Below, piece after piece: positions 32,302 through 42,797 of a stretch of 52,611 nucleotides of DNA. The notes below the pieces were generated by a model. The model was not told where the DNA came from. It worked only from the letters and a program-made list of their open reading frames with translations, and searched no databases. Position 1 is the stretch's first letter. Each line of letters starts with the position of its first letter. The translations under genes and the position numbers were made by a program. The stretch covers positions 1 through 52,611 of the forward strand of contig JAUIMJ010000002.1 of NCBI GenBank assembly GCA_030433295.1. The letters run 5' to 3'. Origin of the DNA: a bacterium. Lineage in GTDB: Bacteria; Bdellovibrionota_C; UBA2361; SZUA-149.

Positions 32302-33114
32302 CTAAACCGCGCCCAAACTGCGCTTTCGCGCCTCAAGGATCAATTCATAGGCCTCCTGTACCGCTCTGAACTCTGCGTTTGAGCGAGAAAGCATCTGATT
32401 GCTTACCCCGTGTGCCTGAAGGATATCCGGATGAAGCGTCTTTACGAGTTCGCGATACCGCTTCTTACAAGTTGCAGTGCTATCTGAGACCAGACAGCCG
32501 AGAACCCTGTAGGCCTCCTCCAGTTTTTTCGCTGCGCTCTGCCCCCGGTCACCACTGTTCGAAACATACTGTTTTTTTAAACTGAGGTATTCTTCCCGAG
32601 AGAGGCCGAAAATTGTTGCGGCAGAGAGAACGAGCTTCTCCTCTTCTGACGAGAATTCCTTGTCTGCAAACGAGAGGATTAGAAACAAGCAGATCGCATT
32701 CTCCATCATCACGGGATTGCCACAAAACAACTCTCGATAATGTCGGGCATAGTATTCGAAGGGAACACTGGAGCTTCTTGCAAGTTTAAAAGTCTGCAAG
32801 GCCAGATTCTTTTGTTGCTCGCTGAGACTCAGCTTTTCGTCAATAAAGGAAGAAATTAGAGCCATCTCACTCCGGGCAACTCTTCCATCTGCAGCTGCCA
32901 CCTTTGCCAGCATGGAGAAAATCGCAATGAAGAAAACAGACTGCCGCTTGCTTGAGCCCAGAAATGGTCGACGGCTCGTGCACCATGGGTGCCAGAAGGC
33001 TCGCGCTCGGCTACGTAGTTCCAATGCTTTCACAACAGCCAGCCGCAGACGATTGAAGGAGCCCTGAAACAATACGCCTCGTTCACTGCGAAGTAATTGC
33101 TCATACCAGGACAT
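32302..33114 (-). CDS. DjlA-like co-chaperone (TerB-like plus J domain)
   Basis: MLAKVAAADGRVARSE TerB motif; C-terminal AYRVLG...YRELVKTLHPD...AY J-domain; AGGAGG RBS before ATG 33114. Confidence 0.85.
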   Translation of the reverse strand: MSWYEQLLRSERGVLFQGSFNRLRLAVVKALELRSRARAFWHPWCTSRRPFLGSSKRQSVFFIAIFSMLAKVAAADGRVARSEMALISSFIDEKLSLSEQQKNLALQTFKLARSSSVPFEYYARHYRELFCGNPVMMENAICLFLILSFADKEFSSEEEKLVLSAATIFGLSREEYLSLKKQYVSNSGDRGQSAAKKLEEAYRVLGCLVSDSTATCKKRYRELVKTLHPDILQAHGVSNQMLSRSNAEFRAVQEAYELILEARKRSLGAV

Positions 33115-33411
33115 CGTTCCCCTCCTAAATCCTCTCCTTAGACCCAAGGCCATCGAGACATGCGAAGACCCTGCATGAATAACCAAAAACCTACTATTTA
33201 GACGGAGATTCTTGAGAAATCCTTGAAAATGGCTAATATTCCTGCAGTCTTTTCGCTGCTAGCCGACTCTAAACAGGTAACAAGCGAAGACAGGACGCGA
33301 CTACCCTTTGGGTATCGGGATTTTCCCCTCGTTTGAGAGAAAATCCGGAAACCCCGGGCCCTGCTATTTTTGACTGTCGCTCCGGGACACATCTCGTAGA
33401 GGGAGGAAACC

Positions 33412-34506: not shown

Positions 34507-35749
34507 GAGAGATGAACCCTCTCGGGTTCTCATGCTTTGCTATTTTTTTCCTCCGATACTCACGACAGGGGCAACGAGAAGTATTGCCTTCGGGCGGCAC
34601 TTACCCGCGTTCGGATGGACTCCCCAGATATTGACGGTTAGAGACCATAAAGATCCCTGGGTGAAAACAGGTGCTCCTGTTCCCGAAGACATCGAAATAA
34701 TCAGGACACCCGAGTGGAACCTGAATGCACTGATATCGATTCTGAACGGGGCAATCAGCAAAGCCTGCTCCCTCTTCGGGCATGACCTCAAACGCGACTA
34801 TCCGCGTGAAATTCTCTGCCTGCCGGACTCTCAGATGGCCTGGCTCTCTACCTGGTATGGCCTATCAGCCGCAAAAAACAGTGATTGTATCTATGCAACC
34901 TGCTCACCATTTAGCTCTGCAATCAGCGGCACCTGGCTAAAAAAACTTACCGGCAAACCACTGGTTCTGGATTTTCGCGATCCCTGGACTCTTAATCCGC
35001 ACACCTCGCCTATCTGGTTTCATAAACAGGGAACCGAGATACTTGAGCGCCTGGTGATCAGGAACTGTGACAGGCTGATACTCAACACACCGGGCGCCGA
35101 ACGACTCTATCGAGAAAAGTATCCTCAGTATCAAGACAAGTTCCTCGCTATTCCCAACGGCTATGACGAGCTTCAGCTAGTTGAAGCGAAGCAAGGCGAG
35201 ACGAAAGATGCACCGCTTAAGATAATGCACGTGGGTAACTTTTACGGAGCGCGTAACCCCGACAATCTCCTCGAAGCGCTGACGCGCCTTGAGCGCTCAG
35301 ACATTGAGTTTGTCCAGGTTGGCGGGACCTTTCCATCATATGAACACTACAAATCAAGACTCTCGATTACGGTTACCGGAATGGTCTCACGCGAAGAAGC
35401 CCTAAAGCAGATGAATACTGCTTCCCTTCTCTTTCTTAAACAAGGGTTTGAGGAGGGCGTGGATGATTATGTTGCCGTTGCGGCAAAGACCTATGAGTAC
35501 CTCGCCTGCGGCCTGCCTGTAATAGCGGACTGCCCGGAAGGTGACAACGCGGATATCATCAGGGAATACGGCTCCGGTAGTCACGTCGTATGTGATAACC
35601 AGATTGATAGTGTGGAACAGGCAGTGCGTAAGGCACTGGAAGAAGAGGGATGGAAACGGCCTGCTATAAAGGAAAGCTTCAAGCAGGCCTTCGATCGAAA
35701 AAATCTCAGCAAACTCCTGGCTGAGACGCTCAGTGCAGCCTGTCAGTAA
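34493..35749 (+). CDS. GT4 family glycosyltransferase
   Basis: YFFPP, LDFRDPW, IPNGYD and KTYEYLACGLPV motifs; overlaps the end of wecB. Confidence 0.9.
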   Translation: MSSPERDEPSRVLMLCYFFPPILTTGATRSIAFGRHLPAFGWTPQILTVRDHKDPWVKTGAPVPEDIEIIRTPEWNLNALISILNGAISKACSLFGHDLKRDYPREILCLPDSQMAWLSTWYGLSAAKNSDCIYATCSPFSSAISGTWLKKLTGKPLVLDFRDPWTLNPHTSPIWFHKQGTEILERLVIRNCDRLILNTPGAERLYREKYPQYQDKFLAIPNGYDELQLVEAKQGETKDAPLKIMHVGNFYGARNPDNLLEALTRLERSDIEFVQVGGTFPSYEHYKSRLSITVTGMVSREEALKQMNTASLLFLKQGFEEGVDDYVAVAAKTYEYLACGLPVIADCPEGDNADIIREYGSGSHVVCDNQIDSVEQAVRKALEEEGWKRPAIKESFKQAFDRKNLSKLLAETLSAACQ

Positions 35750-35770: not shown

Positions 35771-37912
35771 TTACTTCTGTTGTAATGACCAGGAGGGATC
35801 CCAGTTCTCGGGAGAAAAGTCCTCCCTCAGCTCTTCTTCGATTCTCGCCACATACGCTCGTGCGACGGGATCTTCCCTCAGCTCAGTAAATACAGAACGT
35901 GCTGCGCTGAGATCACCCCGATCAAAGTAGTCGAGTCCCTGCTCGTATCGACTGAGAGCATCTCCTGTAAATACAATTTGCGAGTCATCATACTTTGGTT
36001 CATACACCCGAACCGCCTGCTCCCTGCCAATCACTCGAATATCGGCAACACGCCGATACGGGAAATCAGAGGCAAGCTGTTTGCGGCAACTCTCTGAGAA
36101 GAGCAAATAGGTACCAAAATGTTTATTGGCGCCTTCTATTCTCGACGCAAGGTTAGCGCCATCACCTATTACAGTGTAGTCAAAACGCGACTTCGATCCA
36201 AAATTTCCTACGCTGACCTCCGCTGTATTGATACCGATACGCGTCGCAGGAAAAACACCGTAGGCACTTTCAAAGCGTTCCTTGTTAGCAAGCAAAACCT
36301 GCTGACAGGCGATCGCAGCTTCGAGTGAAAGGGCCGCATGTCGAGCGTTGTGAAGCGGAGCATTCCAGAACGCGACAACAGCATCACCAACGTACTTATC
36401 TACCGTACCACCTCGCTCCTGAATCAAGTCCGTCATCAGCGTAAGATACTCGTTGAGCAGAGCTACGAGTTGCGCAGGATCCAGCTTCTCGGACGCTGAC
36501 GTAAAGCCTGCAATGTCACTGAAGAAAATGCTCACTTCGCGCTTTTCTCCTCCAAGTGAAAGAGCCGCGGGAGATTCCGCTATCTGCTTTACGAGCTCCG
36601 GACTTACGTAATGCTGAAATGCACCTCGAATAAAACGATGACGTCGTCCTTCAAGCTGATACTGCAAATAAAAGCAAAGCATGGCGGTCATAATTGCCGA
36701 ACTGAGGGGCAGGACCAGAGGCACCCAGTATCCTTTTGAAGCACCGGCGACAGTAAACAGAAGAAAACCGGCCCAGAAGGCAATGAGCCAAAAGAAATGG
36801 AGTTTTCGCTGGCTACCTGCAAGCGTTGACCAGGCTGACAACACGATCAACAGTCCGGCGATGAGCACGGTCTCCGAGGAGCCAAGCTTACGGATAAAGT
36901 CTTTATTCAGGGCGTTGTCGAGCACTGCGGCTATGTATTGAACGCCCTGACCGCGACGCTCAAGCGATGTTGGTCTTAAATCAAGCAGGCCGGGAGCGCT
37001 GGTTCCAATAAATACCCATGCGTCTTTGAAAATACTCTGGTCTACCCGTGGTTCTTTACCGTCCTCGATGTCGGCCTGCGCCTGAACAATGCTTGCAAAG
37101 GAAATCCTCTCGTAGGCATGGCTGCCGCCATGAAGCCGAACGCTCAACCGACCTTCTTTATCGAGAAAATCAGAGAGGTGTTCAACACGAAGCCCCCCGG
37201 CTTCTAAAAGAGCGAATGGCATAGACAGCACGAGATAATCATCGAGATAGCTCACCGGCTTATAATGTCGATACACACCATCAGAGTCCGGCTCTGACTG
37301 CACAGCACCAAAGGCAGCACTATGCTCGAGCAATTCAGGGATAGGCAAGGTGGCGTAAGAAAAGCGTGGCGTATCGACCGTGCTCGGATAACGAGATTCT
37401 ATATTTCCGCTAGCGCTGAACTCACGCTGCCTTTTTGCGAACAGCTTCTTCTTCTCCGGTCGGCTATACGAAGAATAGCTATTGAGACTGACTGCGGAGA
37501 CGACCGGTAGTTTGCCCCCTGCCGCTTTTGCAAACTGCGCATCCCCATCGACGGACTGGGCTGAGGACTCCGCAAAAAGAATATCAAAGGCAAGTGCCCG
37601 GGCACCAGCTCGGGTAAGAAACTCAATTGCATAGGTGTAGGTTTCGCGCGGAAGCGGCCAGGTGAGGCCATACTCCTTATCAAAAAAATCAAGTGATGCC
37701 TGATCGATTTCAATTATCTTGATTCGCGCATCCGCCCGTCGAGCCTCGGAGGTCAGAGAGACACGCCAATCCCAGGTTCTGCTTTCAATTTCTTCGATCA
37801 GCGTCCATCGGCTCTGTGTTGCCAGAAAGACAAAAAGGAGCGCAAGCGCAATAATACAGACGCCACCATTTCCCTTAGTAACTTTTCCGCGCAGTGATTG
37901 AAAGGCAGCCAC
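35771..37912 (-). CDS. CHASE2-domain class III adenylate cyclase
   Basis: N-terminal TM; CHASE2 motifs (IIEIDQASL, WPLPR, AFDILF, DSDGVYR, FIGTSAPGLLD..PT); three TM; catalytic FSDIAGFT, DKYVGD, FDYTVIGDGANLASRIEG. Confidence 0.95.
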   Translation of the reverse strand: MAAFQSLRGKVTKGNGGVCIIALALLFVFLATQSRWTLIEEIESRTWDWRVSLTSEARRADARIKIIEIDQASLDFFDKEYGLTWPLPRETYTYAIEFLTRAGARALAFDILFAESSAQSVDGDAQFAKAAGGKLPVVSAVSLNSYSSYSRPEKKKLFAKRQREFSASGNIESRYPSTVDTPRFSYATLPIPELLEHSAAFGAVQSEPDSDGVYRHYKPVSYLDDYLVLSMPFALLEAGGLRVEHLSDFLDKEGRLSVRLHGGSHAYERISFASIVQAQADIEDGKEPRVDQSIFKDAWVFIGTSAPGLLDLRPTSLERRGQGVQYIAAVLDNALNKDFIRKLGSSETVLIAGLLIVLSAWSTLAGSQRKLHFFWLIAFWAGFLLFTVAGASKGYWVPLVLPLSSAIMTAMLCFYLQYQLEGRRHRFIRGAFQHYVSPELVKQIAESPAALSLGGEKREVSIFFSDIAGFTSASEKLDPAQLVALLNEYLTLMTDLIQERGGTVDKYVGDAVVAFWNAPLHNARHAALSLEAAIACQQVLLANKERFESAYGVFPATRIGINTAEVSVGNFGSKSRFDYTVIGDGANLASRIEGANKHFGTYLLFSESCRKQLASDFPYRRVADIRVIGREQAVRVYEPKYDDSQIVFTGDALSRYEQGLDYFDRGDLSAARSVFTELREDPVARAYVARIEEELREDFSPENWDPSWSLQQK

Positions 37913-37917
37913 GATTA

Positions 37918-38823
37918 TCAGCTAAGCGATCTAAGGGCCCGGGCGAAGCGCCTGCTACGAGCCGCACTTGAAACGAACTCAGTGTCGGTTTTTACCTCAA
38001 GCTCCGCAATGCGATCCTGTGCTGAGGGATGCGTGGAGTGCCATCCTCCGCTGGACGCATCAGCGTCTACCCGTCTAAGCATTGTAGCCAGGCCACGCAC
38101 ATCATAGCCGGCACGGGCGAGCAACACTGCGGCATAGGAGTCAGCCTCGTACTCCTGAGAACGGCTATAGCCATTCGACAAGATCGTAGACGCGATATCG
38201 GACACGCTGTCTCCAAACGTGGTGGTCACCTTTCCGACCAGAGCACCGCCCTGCTGTCGCGCAGTATCCTGCCCGAGACGAAGCAGGGCTTTAGAAAGAT
38301 TCGCTTCAGAAATGGCCGCCATGCCATGCCCTTTCACCACATGAGCAACTTCGTGCGCCAGTACCGCGGCAAGGGCTTCTTCATTAGGAATGACTCTAAG
38401 AAAGCCCGTAGTTACGAAGATGAAACCACCGGGTGCCGAAATCGCATTGACTTCAGGGCTATCGAGAATCTGAACAGAGTATCCGCCAAAGGTTTCAGGC
38501 CTGTCAGACACCGCAGCAAGAACTGCTGCTATCTTATTCACGTACGTGTTTGCCGCAGCCCCGCGATAGGGTCGATAACGCGAGAGTATGGTCGCTGCAA
38601 CCCCCCGACCGAGGTAATACTCCTCTTCGTCAGTTATATCCTGGGCGCTCTCAGCAACACTCCCGCCAAAGCGCATTATAGAGTTTGCCTGGGCCCCGGA
38701 CACCAGACCGGTTTGTCGCAATAAAGAGGAACCCAGAGACTGAAACTTCTTATCAGCACATGCGGCACAAACAAAAACACAAACAACTGCAACTACTGCC
38801 TTAGAAACGACGTATCTCATCAA
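37918..38823 (-). CDS. M48 family metallopeptidase, probable lipoprotein
   Basis: Lipobox-like CAAC; VNAISAPGG, LAAVLAHEVAH, YSRSQEYEAD and THPS motifs. Confidence 0.92.
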   Translation of the reverse strand: MMRYVVSKAVVAVVCVFVCAACADKKFQSLGSSLLRQTGLVSGAQANSIMRFGGSVAESAQDITDEEEYYLGRGVAATILSRYRPYRGAAANTYVNKIAAVLAAVSDRPETFGGYSVQILDSPEVNAISAPGGFIFVTTGFLRVIPNEEALAAVLAHEVAHVVKGHGMAAISEANLSKALLRLGQDTARQQGGALVGKVTTTFGDSVSDIASTILSNGYSRSQEYEADSYAAVLLARAGYDVRGLATMLRRVDADASSGGWHSTHPSAQDRIAELEVKTDTEFVSSAARSRRFARALRSLS

Positions 38824-38840
38824 CCCTGATTGACCTCTAC

Positions 38841-39386
38841 TTAAGGAGTAACTCCGGCGAGCCTTCCCTCTTTAGCAAACTGCAGAAGTGCGGCACTGGA
38901 AACGGACTGTTTCTCCATGGCATCCACTGCTTTAAAATTCAGACTGCGGTTTCTGGAAGCATATGCCCGCTCCACCGCTTTGTTAAAGCCCTTGCCCGCA
39001 AGTATCACCGTACTGTCACCGCCACCTTTGTTATCAAAGGCAGCACCGGAATCGAGCACAACCCGGCGCTCAGTTACCGCAGAGGCATGAACGAATCCCG
39101 ACTTGCCGGAGAACGTGCGCACGGCAAGCCAGCTTCCGTCCTGTCGCTCCAGGTCGAGACGATCACCATGACGAACCTGTGCTATCACCGGGGCAATAAA
39201 GCGGGCTTTACTCAAGAGCTTCGCTTCCCGAACCTTAACGTAGACCGCTCCGTTACTTGCAGCGGCGATCGAGGCGGCGAAAAGCCACAACAGCACTATC
39301 GCAAGGCTTGGTAAAACGATGCGCAAACAAAATCGCGATACATCGCGCATATGAATTGAATGAAAAATCTTCGCTGAACTGCTCAT
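38841..39386 (-). CDS. Exported SH3b-like domain protein
   Basis: Signal peptide; G-x-W-L-x-V-xxxx-G-x-x-G-F-V-H SH3_3-like pattern; C-terminal LAGKGFN..VE and F..EGRL segments. Confidence 0.75.
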   Translation of the reverse strand: MSSSAKIFHSIHMRDVSRFCLRIVLPSLAIVLLWLFAASIAAASNGAVYVKVREAKLLSKARFIAPVIAQVRHGDRLDLERQDGSWLAVRTFSGKSGFVHASAVTERRVVLDSGAAFDNKGGGDSTVILAGKGFNKAVERAYASRNRSLNFKAVDAMEKQSVSSAALLQFAKEGRLAGVTP

Positions 39387-39865: not shown

Positions 39866-40756
39866 TTGAAAGCAATATCTGAGTTCCCCCCGTCCCCCAC
39901 TACAGGACCTACTACCGTGTCAATTGATATCAAGTTGGAATCGGCGCTTCGTTCGCTTGGGCTCTTTTCGGAGAACCCACGCCCTACTCGGCTTGCCGCG
40001 GGAAACTTCAACGCCATCTACGAAGTCAGAGACGGTGCGAAGAAATTCGCATTGCGGCTGAACAACGTGAATGACGACCCCGCAGTATATGACCGAGAGG
40101 ACGAGTACGCCGCCCACGGATGGGCCGCCGAACACAATGCAGCTCCGCAGATTTTTGCAGCAACTAAGGACTATTTGCTGATGGAGTTGTTGCGTTTTCG
40201 GCACCCGACGATTTCAGACCTCAGGAACACTGAGCTTCTGGCAAAAATCGTCAACGTGATAAAGGTCGTCCACGCAGGACCAAAGCTCTCGATCAATAAA
40301 TCTCTTCTTACCCGTGCGACCTATTGGTTCGAACGGCGAAAAGAAGAAGGGGTTTTGAACGAAGCTGCGGAACGGGCGTGGGAGATTGTCGGGACGGACA
40401 TCTTCACTGAGAATCTTGAATCCGAACAGGTTTCAGGTCACGGAGACTTGAATCCTGGTAACATCGCGCTTGTAGACGATCGAGTTCTTGTTCTCGATTT
40501 CGAGACGGCTGCCATGATGGCACCGAACTTTGATTTGTCCAAGCTGTGTTACAACGGAGCAGATGACTCGGTGGAAAATGTGGTCCTTCAGATGTATTAC
40601 GGAGATACGAACCCAAAGCACAAACGACAACTGCTTGTGGCGCTTGCCCTGCAGGCCTTTGTCGGAATGGTGTTCGGAACAAGTCAGGACGGAGCGTGGT
40701 CGATCAACAATCGAGCACGTGCACGCTTTGAGCGCTACCACGCTCAACTGCGCTAA
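39866..40756 (+). CDS. Choline/aminoglycoside phosphotransferase-like kinase
   Basis: GNFNAIY, ALR, Brenner motif HGDLNPGNI, LDFE and FDL. Start uncertain. Confidence 0.85.
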   Translation: MKAISEFPPSPTTGPTTVSIDIKLESALRSLGLFSENPRPTRLAAGNFNAIYEVRDGAKKFALRLNNVNDDPAVYDREDEYAAHGWAAEHNAAPQIFAATKDYLLMELLRFRHPTISDLRNTELLAKIVNVIKVVHAGPKLSINKSLLTRATYWFERRKEEGVLNEAAERAWEIVGTDIFTENLESEQVSGHGDLNPGNIALVDDRVLVLDFETAAMMAPNFDLSKLCYNGADDSVENVVLQMYYGDTNPKHKRQLLVALALQAFVGMVFGTSQDGAWSINNRARARFERYHAQLR

Positions 40757-41015: not shown

Positions 41016-42797
41016 ATGAAAGTATCTCTTCCCGAGCAGGTCTGGATCGATGTTGCACCCGCCAGTTTTGGTAGTCGTGCGTTGGCCTACATTGTCGATT
41101 TTCTTATTCGTTGGTCAGTTGCCGGCTCGATTATCTACGTGCTTGTTATTGGCTTTCTCGTCGTTACCCCAAACCTCGCCGGCCATGTCGATGCATCGAC
41201 ATTCTGGGGCCTAGGGCGAGTAGCGCTGGCCCTGCTGTTCATCGGTATCTTTCTCGTTGAGTGGAGCTACCCGATTTTCTTCGAAGTCTATCGAGATGGA
41301 GTGACCCCTGGAAAGAAGATGCTGGGACTGCGCGTCGTCGACGAGCGAGGGCTCCCTATCTCATTTCGGAGTTCTTTTCTGAGAACGGCTCTGAACACCG
41401 TTGATATGATGCCGAGCTTTGGCCTGGTAGCCTTTGTCTCTATGGCGATGAGCAAGCGCTCCCAAAGACTTGGCGACCTGGTAGCAAAAACCATGGTTAT
41501 CTATCAGGAGCAAGACGTTTCTTTTGATAAGGAGGATTCTGAGGATTCCGACAGTGCCAAGACGCTCACCATGCCGCTCGAGTTGTACAACATCATCGAC
41601 CGCTATAAGGCGAGACGAGAAACACTTCCGGAAGACATACGTCTTCATACCCTGTTGCGCATTGAAGCTGCCATCAAGCGCGTAGTTCCGGACGCCCCTG
41701 AGATTGGAGAGACCGACCTCGCAAGCCGAGAGCTCTGGCTGGCTGACGTTCTCAAGAAAAGTAAGCCGGAAAAGCAGAGTGAGGCGAAATCAAAACGTGA
41801 TTCGAACATACAGTGGGGAAAGATTCGCAAGGAACTGCTGGAAACTGAGCATCTCTTAAAAACTATCTCGCAAACACAGGGCACAATCACAAAGGAAGAG
41901 CTCACCAGATTTGCACAGGCCTATAGAGGCGTCTGCCAGCGCTATGCCTACCTCTCTACCTTCTATCCGAAGACTCCTGAGGCAAACAAAGCTGCACAAA
42001 TCGTCAGGAACGGGCGGCGCTTCGTCTACGGCAAGCGGCTTGATGCCTTGAACCGGGAAAATATCGGCTTATCGGAGCGAGTCGGAAACAGCTTTGCGGC
42101 AATCCGCTTTCACTGCGCCCTTGCATCCTCGATCGCTATCCTCGGCGGAGTATTATGCGCTCTGCTGATTCAGTTGCAGCCCGGTCTTTCGTGGCATTTT
42201 CTCAATGAAGAAACCGTCGCACAGTTGCGAGCCGGTCACATCTGGACCGAAAAGATTGTTGGTATGAATGAAATTGCCGCGAGCAGAATCATGACCAACA
42301 ACATATCTGTTTCCATCACCGCCTTTGTGCTTGGTATTACCGGTGGCGTTGGCACGGTGATCATCATGCTCTTCAACGGTATACACCTGGGAGGTGTCTT
42401 TGCCTCACTTGCCATCTACGATATGGCTGATCCCCTGTTCAATTTCGTCGTCGCGCACGGATTTCTGGAAATCTCAATTATTCTGGTTGCCGGTGGCTGC
42501 GGTTTGTTTCTCGGTGACGCAATTCTCAACCCCGGTCACAAAAGCCGGAAACACGCATTGCAGGAGAACGCCAGCATCGTGGTGCCCCTGCTCCTCTTCA
42601 ACGCCGCCTGTCTGGTGCTTGCCGGCCTTGTCGAGGGATTTATTTCGCCTCAGCCCCAAATTCCCTTCGTTGTAAAACTCGCCATTGGTCTGGTGCTTGG
42701 ATCGCTCTACTGGTCCTTCCTCCTGCCGGGAAGTTCGATTAGTAAAACGATGTACAGGAAAGTGAGGGCTTTAATTCAGGACGCAGGCGCGAGGTAG
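41016..42797 (+). CDS. RDD-SpoIIM (DUF95) fusion membrane protein
   Basis: N-terminal RDD (SRALAYIVD, GVTPGKKMLGLRVV, QRLGDLVAKTMV); C-terminal SpoIIM (IMTNNI.V, FNG..LG, AHGFLEI, AGLVEGFISP). Confidence 0.9.
   Translation: MKVSLPEQVWIDVAPASFGSRALAYIVDFLIRWSVAGSIIYVLVIGFLVVTPNLAGHVDASTFWGLGRVALALLFIGIFLVEWSYPIFFEVYRDGVTPGKKMLGLRVVDERGLPISFRSSFLRTALNTVDMMPSFGLVAFVSMAMSKRSQRLGDLVAKTMVIYQEQDVSFDKEDSEDSDSAKTLTMPLELYNIIDRYKARRETLPEDIRLHTLLRIEAAIKRVVPDAPEIGETDLASRELWLADVLKKSKPEKQSEAKSKRDSNIQWGKIRKELLETEHLLKTISQTQGTITKEELTRFAQAYRGVCQRYAYLSTFYPKTPEANKAAQIVRNGRRFVYGKRLDALNRENIGLSERVGNSFAAIRFHCALASSIAILGGVLCALLIQLQPGLSWHFLNEETVAQLRAGHIWTEKIVGMNEIAASRIMTNNISVSITAFVLGITGGVGTVIIMLFNGIHLGGVFASLAIYDMADPLFNFVVAHGFLEISIILVAGGCGLFLGDAILNPGHKSRKHALQENASIVVPLLLFNAACLVLAGLVEGFISPQPQIPFVVKLAIGLVLGSLYWSFLLPGSSISKTMYRKVRALIQDAGAR

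Follow-up and report, generated by a model that had tools for sequence, protein, structure and literature searches.

The ligands of CHASE2 domains are largely unknown according to one report (PMC5192318), and the one cyclase case studied points to a protein signal relayed by an envelope partner (PMC13001267). In Sinorhizobium meliloti, the CHASE2 class III cyclases CyaD1, CyaD2 and CyaK are described as producing cyclic AMP (cAMP) by way of NsrA and a protein signal (PMC13001267), and in the Burkholderia BiofilmReg operon a CHASE2 histidine kinase is encoded together with a response regulator and a periplasmic LysM-FecR protein (PMC5192318). Protease control of an envelope sensor is represented, again in S. 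meliloti, by the LysM-containing M48 lipoprotein JspA, which with LppA lowers the level of ExoR, a periplasmic inhibitor of the ExoS kinase (PMC10659215). Here we examined three adjacent genes at positions 35,771 to 39,386 of a 52,611-nt stretch of bacterial DNA (Bdellovibrionota_C; UBA2361; SZUA-149; contig JAUIMJ010000002.1 of assembly GCA_030433295.1, positions 1 to 52,611), referred to throughout as the window. They encode an exported SH3b protein with a helical tail, an M48 zinc metalloprotease and an adenylate cyclase with a periplasmic CHASE2 domain. This trio is conserved across many phyla in association with one CHASE2 subfamily, and we propose that the SH3–M48 pair may control the cyclase from the periplasm.

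The three open reading frames (ORFs) run head to tail on the minus strand, at 38841–39386 (181 aa, SH3b-tail protein), 37918–38823 (301 aa, protease) and 35771–37912 (713 aa, cyclase). The preliminary description of the locus had reported a co-oriented trio with gaps of 17 and 5 nt, and both the ORF list and a direct reading of the letters agree with it: the SH3b gene ends in TAA, followed by 17 nt (38824–38840) and a TTG-ATG, and the protease gene ends in TGA, followed by 5 nt (37913–37917) and the GTG start of the cyclase gene. Translation of the protease may begin either at the TTG at 38823, giving 301 aa, or at the ATG at 38820, giving 300 aa. The flanking genes, an APH-type kinase gene at 39866 upstream and a glycosyltransferase gene ending at 35749 downstream, lie on the opposite strand, so that the unit consists of exactly three genes in this genome.

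Conservation of the arrangement was assessed around the 80 best relatives of the M48 protease, with one genome per species and neighbours scored using profiles built in this analysis. An SH3-tail gene was found directly upstream on the same strand in 64 of the 80 loci (45 of the 46 nearest), a CHASE2 protein within 2.6 kb in 55 (41 of the 46 nearest) and both partners in 52 (40 of the 46 nearest), which places the co-location of the three genes far beyond chance. The genes always share one strand and occur as SH3–M48–CHASE2 in 33 loci and as CHASE2–SH3–M48 in 19; since each of these orders is itself conserved, the linkage has been kept despite rearrangement. The SH3 and M48 genes overlap by 4 nt in 32 of the 52 trio loci and form the tightest unit, the core of the trio. 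More than 15 phylum-level labels are represented among the trio loci; the groups named in the records of the loci include Bdellovibrionota, Desulfobacterales, Verrucomicrobiota, Kiritimatiellia, Aminicenantes and Elusimicrobiota as well as Planctomycetota, Myxococcales, Methylococcaceae, Nitrospirales and Spirochaetes. The preliminary description had suggested a search of gene neighbourhoods across phyla, and the outcome of that search is positive.

The loci with neither partner (13/80) contain the most distant, longer M48 proteins, and three loci have CHASE2 with no SH3 match at threshold: L024 lies at a contig start, L064 retains a weak SH3 match (E 1e-4) and in L075 the position is taken by an unassigned ORF of 291 aa. 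Two Planctomycetia loci carry two tandem SH3–M48 pairs after a single CHASE2 cyclase (L054, 5186–7992; L056, 4499–7305). Across 35 loci, the distance matrix of each protein correlates with those of the other two (r 0.85–0.91, with the observed value reached by 0 of 2000 permutations); this fits inheritance as a block, although shared ancestry alone produces some correlation.

A parallel search covered 124 genomes of the window's phylum, with 150 of the 215 CHASE2 matches listed. Full-length SH3-tail matches (72 in total) were present in 56 of the 124 genomes, and every one of these 56 also contained CHASE2, compared with 37 of the 68 other genomes (Fisher p 2.5e-10, a value that overstates the case because kin genomes are not independent). 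For 39 of the 72 SH3-tail matches a listed CHASE2 match lay within 2.5 kb on the same contig, with 4 more at 4.3–11.8 kb; the remaining 29 had no CHASE2 among the matches listed, many of them lying within 2.5 kb of a contig end. The linked CHASE2 matches (n = 41) were 945–1032 nt long and the unlinked ones (n = 109, among the matches listed) had a median of 867 nt, with 8 of the 11 long unlinked matches beginning within 1.5 kb of a contig start. The trio CHASE2 proteins represent a distinct, longer subfamily.

When the scan was anchored on the cyclase, in 80 metagenome loci (L086–L165), both partners were found in 16 and at least one in 19. Among the relatives ranked second to eleventh (L087–L096), eight had both partners, L089 had the protease at a contig start and L095 had neither. 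A FecR-domain gene was found instead near the CHASE2 cyclase in 10 of the 80 loci (L104, L110, L116 and seven more), and not in the trio. In five of these ten FecR loci, the gene directly upstream of the cyclase encodes an unassigned protein of ~800 aa. The link thus holds for one CHASE2 subfamily and not for CHASE2 cyclases in general. The triad put forward in the preliminary description is retained in this narrower form: a functional link of the pair to one CHASE2 subfamily is well supported, because synteny in 52/80 loci and co-occurrence in 56/56 genomes both point to it, and its extension to CHASE2 cyclases at large is not.

Two otherwise typical trios carry, in the place of the cyclase, a CHASE2 protein with no recognisable output domain (L074, 3594–5291, 565 aa; L080, 2860–4545, 561 aa), indicating that the linkage tracks the sensor rather than the output. 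Clustering of the neighbouring genes of the loci returned, beyond the trio itself, only genes of the cytoplasmic or membrane side of cAMP signalling, and no conserved candidate substrate gene. A gene of the metallo-β-lactamase (MBL) fold (Lactamase_B_2) follows the trio cyclase in 14 of the 80 loci (e.g. L013, 9032–9904), and a gene for an MscS channel with a cyclic nucleotide monophosphate (cNMP)-binding domain lies just after the cyclase in 12 of the 80 (e.g. L014, 9847–11304); these are a possible cAMP breakdown enzyme and a possible cAMP reader, respectively. The window contains neither gene, and the genome to which it belongs has eight cNMP-binding matches.

The small protein encoded at 38841–39386 (−) scored 22.7 bits (E 1.1e-4) as a single sequence against Pfam SH3_3 (PF08239), under the 27-bit cut-off. 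A profile of 36 relatives searched against the Protein Data Bank (PDB), in comparison, matched the SH3b domains of NlpC/P60 peptidases with an E value of 1.6e-11 (3pvq). The AlphaFold2 (AF2) model, with a mean predicted local distance difference test (pLDDT) score of 81.9, comprises an N-terminal helix at residues 16–41 (the signal peptide), a β-barrel at residues 47–105 (39072–39248, −; strands within residues 47–100) with block pLDDT of 97–98, a disordered linker with pLDDT below 50 at residues 115–125, and three tail helices at residues 136–145, 152–159 and 164–173 with block pLDDT of 79–91. In Foldseek the barrel superimposed on the SH3b domains of 4r0k, 3npf and 4krt with root-mean-square deviations (rmsd) of 1.1–1.3 Å over ~60 residues, the best match being 4r0k (probability 1.00, 1.2 Å over 61 columns). 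The SH3b identity of the protein is confirmed at the level of profile and predicted fold, in keeping with the exported SH3b-like protein of the preliminary description, and peptidoglycan binding is only putative.

The most conserved part of the SH3 family lies outside the SH3 domain. LAGKGFNxxVE, which opens the helical tail, is the best conserved stretch, above the SH3 domain itself; in an alignment of 35 proteins G133 is invariant, and near-invariant positions are A130, F134 and E139. In the window the LAGKGFN motif (residues 129–135; 38982–39002, −), which was also read directly from the letters, sits where the disordered linker meets the three-helix C-terminal module (residues 136–173; 38868–38981, −). 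The helical tail has no Pfam family and no counterpart among the listed matches of the PDB profile search, and a search of the ESM Atlas with the SH3 protein returned only SH3_3 clusters labelled ‘hypothetical protein’. The signal peptide has no conserved cysteine in the family alignment. With the SH3 profile, 940 representative proteins matched at E ≤1e-30, and 69 of the best 150 were single-stretch proteins of 140–219 aa; because proteins with multiple SH3 repeats are mixed into the list, no clean size can be given for the SH3-tail family.

Membership of the second protein (37918–38823, −) in the Peptidase_M48 family (PF01435) is clear, with an E value of 7.9e-33 and 114.3 bits against a cut-off of 20.3. 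The intact HExxH/E zinc site reported for it in the preliminary description is seen throughout the family, H157, E158, H161 and E224 being invariant in 35 trio proteases; in the window, the HEVAH site occupies residues 157–161 (38341–38355, −) and Glu224, the third zinc ligand by alignment with the conserved Glu of 3c37 and BepA, is encoded at 38152–38154 (−). These same two proteins are the closest solved structures (3c37, E 1.4e-32; BepA, ~1e-23), and the best named relatives belong to Bdellovibrionota/Oligoflexia. The protease is a putative lipoprotein. The candidate lipobox cysteine, Cys22 (38758–38760, −), is near-invariant in the alignment of 35 proteases and C21 is invariant in another; the consensus before the cysteine is G-C, and the lipobox in the window reads C-A-A-C, with an atypical cysteine at −3. 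Assignment to described M48 types failed by a wide distance, the score being 63.5 bits against a cut-off of 570 for BepA (NCBIfam NF052400), with no TPR family detected by Pfam, and 60.7 bits against 365 for LoiP (NCBIfam NF052399). The genome has other M48 genes, one scoring 112 bits, so the trio protease is not the only envelope M48 enzyme of this bacterium. One paralogue of 453 aa (L085, contig C171, 4006–5367), followed by a DUF5610 gene, has a weak C-terminal SH3_3-like stretch (E 0.0027 with Pfam, 1.9e-5 with the SH3 profile built in this analysis).

The third gene (35771–37912, −) encodes a 713-aa protein with a CHASE2 domain (PF05226; E 7.8e-39, 134.2 bits against a cut-off of 26.3) at residues 25–357 (36842–37840, −), also recovered in the genome search. 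In the AF2 model (mean pLDDT 90.5), membrane helices at residues 2–34 and, as a group of three, at 345–432 flank this domain, which thus lies between an N-terminal helix and further membrane helices and precedes the output domain, as in CHASE2 receptors. The catalytic domain, residues 457–632 (36017–36544, −), matched Guanylate_cyc with an E value of 2.8e-17 (63.3 bits against a cut-off of 21.9). Its closest structures are CyaB, Cya2 and CyaC: CyaB (3r5g) gave a profile E value of 1.7e-28, and in the VIA structure search, where the matches of the whole cyclase model were all taken up by the cyclase domain, Z scores were 23.4–23.7 (CyaB 3r5g, 23.4, with an rmsd of 1.8 Å over 188 residues). D466, K506, D510, N587 and R591 are invariant in 35 trio cyclases and Thr563 lies in GINTAEV, so that the residues listed in the preliminary description, both metal-binding Asp, Lys, Thr, Asn and Arg, hold in the alignment. 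Together with the cyclase fold they assign the domain to the class III adenylate cyclases, and the Lys/Thr pair predicts specificity for ATP over GTP. Pfam detected no cytoplasmic sensor domain in the protein.

Within the CHASE2 domain, residues 70–316 include positions common to trio and non-trio CHASE2 proteins, namely the acidic residues D70, D110, D124, D209, D211 and D311, together with R89, R215 and a WPxPR motif (85–89). These look like a shared binding or metal site. The same genome encodes a second CHASE2 cyclase of 682 aa (L001, contig C184, 3–3619), which begins 10 nt after a gene for a TonB-dependent-receptor-like β-barrel and is followed by a TPR gene, a layout that recalls NsrA with CyaK, and a third CHASE2 protein that lacks an output domain.

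We propose that the trio is a conserved signalling unit, in which the periplasmic SH3b-tail protein and the M48 protease would set the activity of the CHASE2-subfamily cyclase and cAMP would be made in the cytoplasm. The SH3b domain may anchor the small protein at the cell wall or at another envelope ligand, with the helical tail engaging the protease, the CHASE2 domain or both. A cue from the envelope would then alter cleavage by the M48 enzyme, the simplest target being the SH3 protein, cut in the disordered linker or at the GKGF border, and this would release or impose control on the CHASE2 domain and so switch the cyclase dimer. Taken as a whole, the reading that the periplasmic pair controls the CHASE2 cyclase, probably by regulated proteolysis of the JspA–LppA–ExoR type, has in our judgement an even chance of being right. 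Its parts are of unequal strength. The three proteins very probably belong to one pathway, and a position of the SH3–M48 pair upstream of the cyclase is somewhat favoured over other placements; that the SH3 protein is a cleaved regulator is a tentative suggestion, made by analogy and open to considerable doubt. What the data show are the domains, active sites with all residues in place, and a linkage that is tight, ancient and restricted to one CHASE2 subfamily; the role of the pair as input, the identity of the cut protein and the nature of the cue we infer. The association of M48 enzymes with domains of the wall-binding type recurs, through fusion to PG_binding_1 in L057, through the SH3_3-like stretch of the paralogue in the same genome and through LysM in JspA (PMC10659215).

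A three-chain prediction of the CHASE2 ectodomain with the mature M48 and SH3 proteins gave neither support for a complex nor evidence against one, its score being equalled by a control with a substitute for chain 1. Several observations weigh against the proposal. The additional length of the trio CHASE2 domain corresponds to a variable, mostly helical loop at about residues 150–195 that is absent in 4 of 35 proteins, and no docking surface emerges from the CHASE2 columns that set the trio subfamily apart, of which there are only three (Q71, S117 and G422). Most CHASE2 cyclases occur without the partners (109 of the 150 listed in the phylum, 61 of the 80 metagenome loci). Conversely, 12 of the 64 SH3–M48 pairs lack a CHASE2 neighbour within 2.6 kb, although five of these have less than 1.3 kb of flanking sequence on one side, and in some genomes, such as G060, G061 and G066, the pairs outnumber the CHASE2 genes; the pair therefore serves, or is able to serve, further clients. 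Among these pairs, those in L023, L036 and L046 have unrelated neighbours by Pfam, that in L057 has its M48 protein fused to two PG_binding_1 domains, and that in L067 (1426–6723) comes right after a gene for a LapD_MoxY_N-HAMP-GGDEF-EAL receptor and a GGDEF gene. Shared ancestry, moreover, inflates both the correlated distances and the phyletic co-occurrence. Nor do gene fusions tie the proteins together: P0084 (SH3 with M48, 473 aa), which keeps an internal signal peptide and lipobox, and P0121 (M48 with CHASE2 and cyclase, 978 aa, one sequence), with a frameshift-like junction and an impossible topology, were both rejected as likely read-through.

In one alternative, the SH3 protein would be an adaptor, as LppA is for JspA or NlpI for Prc, and the protease would act on the CHASE2 ectodomain, the receptor being processed, activated or removed by the pair. 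The tight coupling of the SH3 and M48 genes, the pairs that lack CHASE2, as expected of an adaptor–protease unit with several clients, and the restriction to a distinct longer CHASE2 subfamily would all suit such an arrangement. We nevertheless consider it unlikely, since the extra CHASE2 loop is predicted to be helical (block pLDDT 77–92) and its variability and occasional loss are unlike a conserved cleavage site, and the most conserved short motif is found in the SH3 protein and not in CHASE2. Somewhat less likely still is that the pair makes or presents a ligand, the M48 enzyme cutting an envelope or foreign protein, the SH3b domain holding that protein or the wall, and the product binding CHASE2. 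The S. meliloti CHASE2 cyclases are described as responding to a protein signal, plant uL2, through NsrA (PMC13001267), and other CHASE2 cyclases lie beside genes for other extracytoplasmic partners, FecR-domain proteins in the metagenome loci and the TonB-receptor-like barrel at the paralogue described above; the loci nevertheless contain no conserved candidate substrate gene, and a ligand would leave the translational coupling of SH3 and M48 unexplained.

Two further explanations give the pair a role other than input. Control could run from inside to outside, with the CHASE2 receptor holding or releasing the protease pair, as LapD holds and releases LapG, and with envelope proteolysis as the output. 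The pair beside a LapD-like receptor in L067 and the CHASE2 proteins without a cyclase domain in L074 and L080 are compatible with this, but L067 stands alone among the loci, all 35 trio cyclases examined keep an intact, invariant active site and the 713-aa protein has no cytoplasmic sensor domain by Pfam, which makes this direction very improbable. It is about equally hard to sustain, and only marginally less so, that the genes are mere neighbours, the pair being a general envelope quality-control protease and adaptor with which the cyclase rides along. M48 enzymes such as BepA and LoiP do carry out quality control, and pairs without CHASE2 would be expected; yet the trio is kept across many phyla in two gene orders, the SH3-tail family comes with CHASE2 in 56 of 56 genomes of the phylum, the link is specific to one CHASE2 subfamily, and the genome has other M48 genes.

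More broadly, and tentatively, CHASE2 may be a reader of protein partners rather than a small-molecule receptor, served by interchangeable envelope cassettes, among which SH3–M48 would act as a transferable, protease-based switch that reports the condition of the wall or envelope through a second messenger. Three cassettes come from the present loci or from the papers cited: the SH3b-tail protein with M48, FecR-domain proteins and outer-membrane barrels. That the SH3–M48 cassette, found mainly with one CHASE2 cyclase subfamily, can serve other receptors is suggested by the orphan pairs and by the LapD-like neighbour.

Around the locus, a scan for promoters and terminators gave counts near those of shuffled sequences (6 against 3.3 and 8 against 4.8, respectively). 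Contigs from two RNA libraries of one study, 95–99% alike, cover 36069–36814 and 37089–37381 of the cyclase gene and 38794–39063 and 39139–39300 in the SH3 gene and its 3′ end, which is not proof of transcription, and the uncovered stretches carry no information. Metagenome DNA runs from four studies (aquaculture, biofloc, aquatic and plain metagenomes) hold at least half of the sampled words of the stretch. Two nearby genes encode unusual domain fusions, one of TerB with a DnaJ J-domain (294 aa; 32302–33186, −) and the other of RDD with SpoIIM (593 aa; 41016–42797, +).

Compared with described proteins, the trio protease shares the M48 fold and zinc site with BepA and LoiP, and with the latter a putative lipoprotein nature, but differs from both in falling far below their NCBIfam cut-offs, in lacking TPR and in having a dedicated SH3 partner and a CHASE2 linkage. 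The closest likeness in proposed working is to JspA–LppA–ExoR, where an M48 HExxH lipoprotein and a small extracytoplasmic partner control a membrane sensor from the periplasm, and where a domain of the wall-binding type is again present, LysM in that system and SH3b in the trio (PMC10659215). The composition is different. JspA has 497 aa and a fused LysM domain, whereas the trio protease has 301 aa and no LysM; LppA is a lipoprotein described with no mention of SH3, whereas the trio partner has a signal peptide without a conserved cysteine; and the target is a separate inhibitor, ExoR, the sensor ExoS is a histidine kinase that lacks CHASE2, and no single operon joins the genes to that of the sensor (PMC10659215). 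The trio would therefore resemble this pathway in its working and is not a member of it.

On the receptor side, the S. meliloti cyclases share with the trio a CHASE2 cyclase output tied to an envelope partner, but NsrA is an outer-membrane β-barrel, and no protease or SH3 protein is reported with CyaD1, CyaD2 or CyaK (PMC13001267). No barrel family was detected among the window genes scanned around the trio, the only barrel being that beside the C184 paralogue. The Burkholderia BiofilmReg operon similarly encodes a CHASE2 sensor with a periplasmic protein bearing a domain of the wall-binding type, and differs in having no protease, a LysM-FecR partner and a histidine kinase output (PMC5192318). 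Partner-mediated CHASE2 sensing thus has precedents in NsrA and in the LysM-FecR protein, neither of which involves a protease, and a literature search that excluded subscription journals and supplements found no paper that connects CHASE2 with either M48 proteases or SH3 proteins. By its recurrence across many phyla, the trio singles out two specific proteins as candidate partners of one CHASE2 subfamily and offers a testable lead on CHASE2 input, with culturable carriers among the loci, as labelled, in Desulfobotulus alkaliphilus ASO4-4 (L020) and Paenacidovorax caeni R-24608 (L065). Should the proposed control be correct, it would extend protease-gated envelope sensing from two-component systems such as JspA/ExoR to cAMP signalling. 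The trio would fit among the known accessory-protein and protease-gated envelope sensors.

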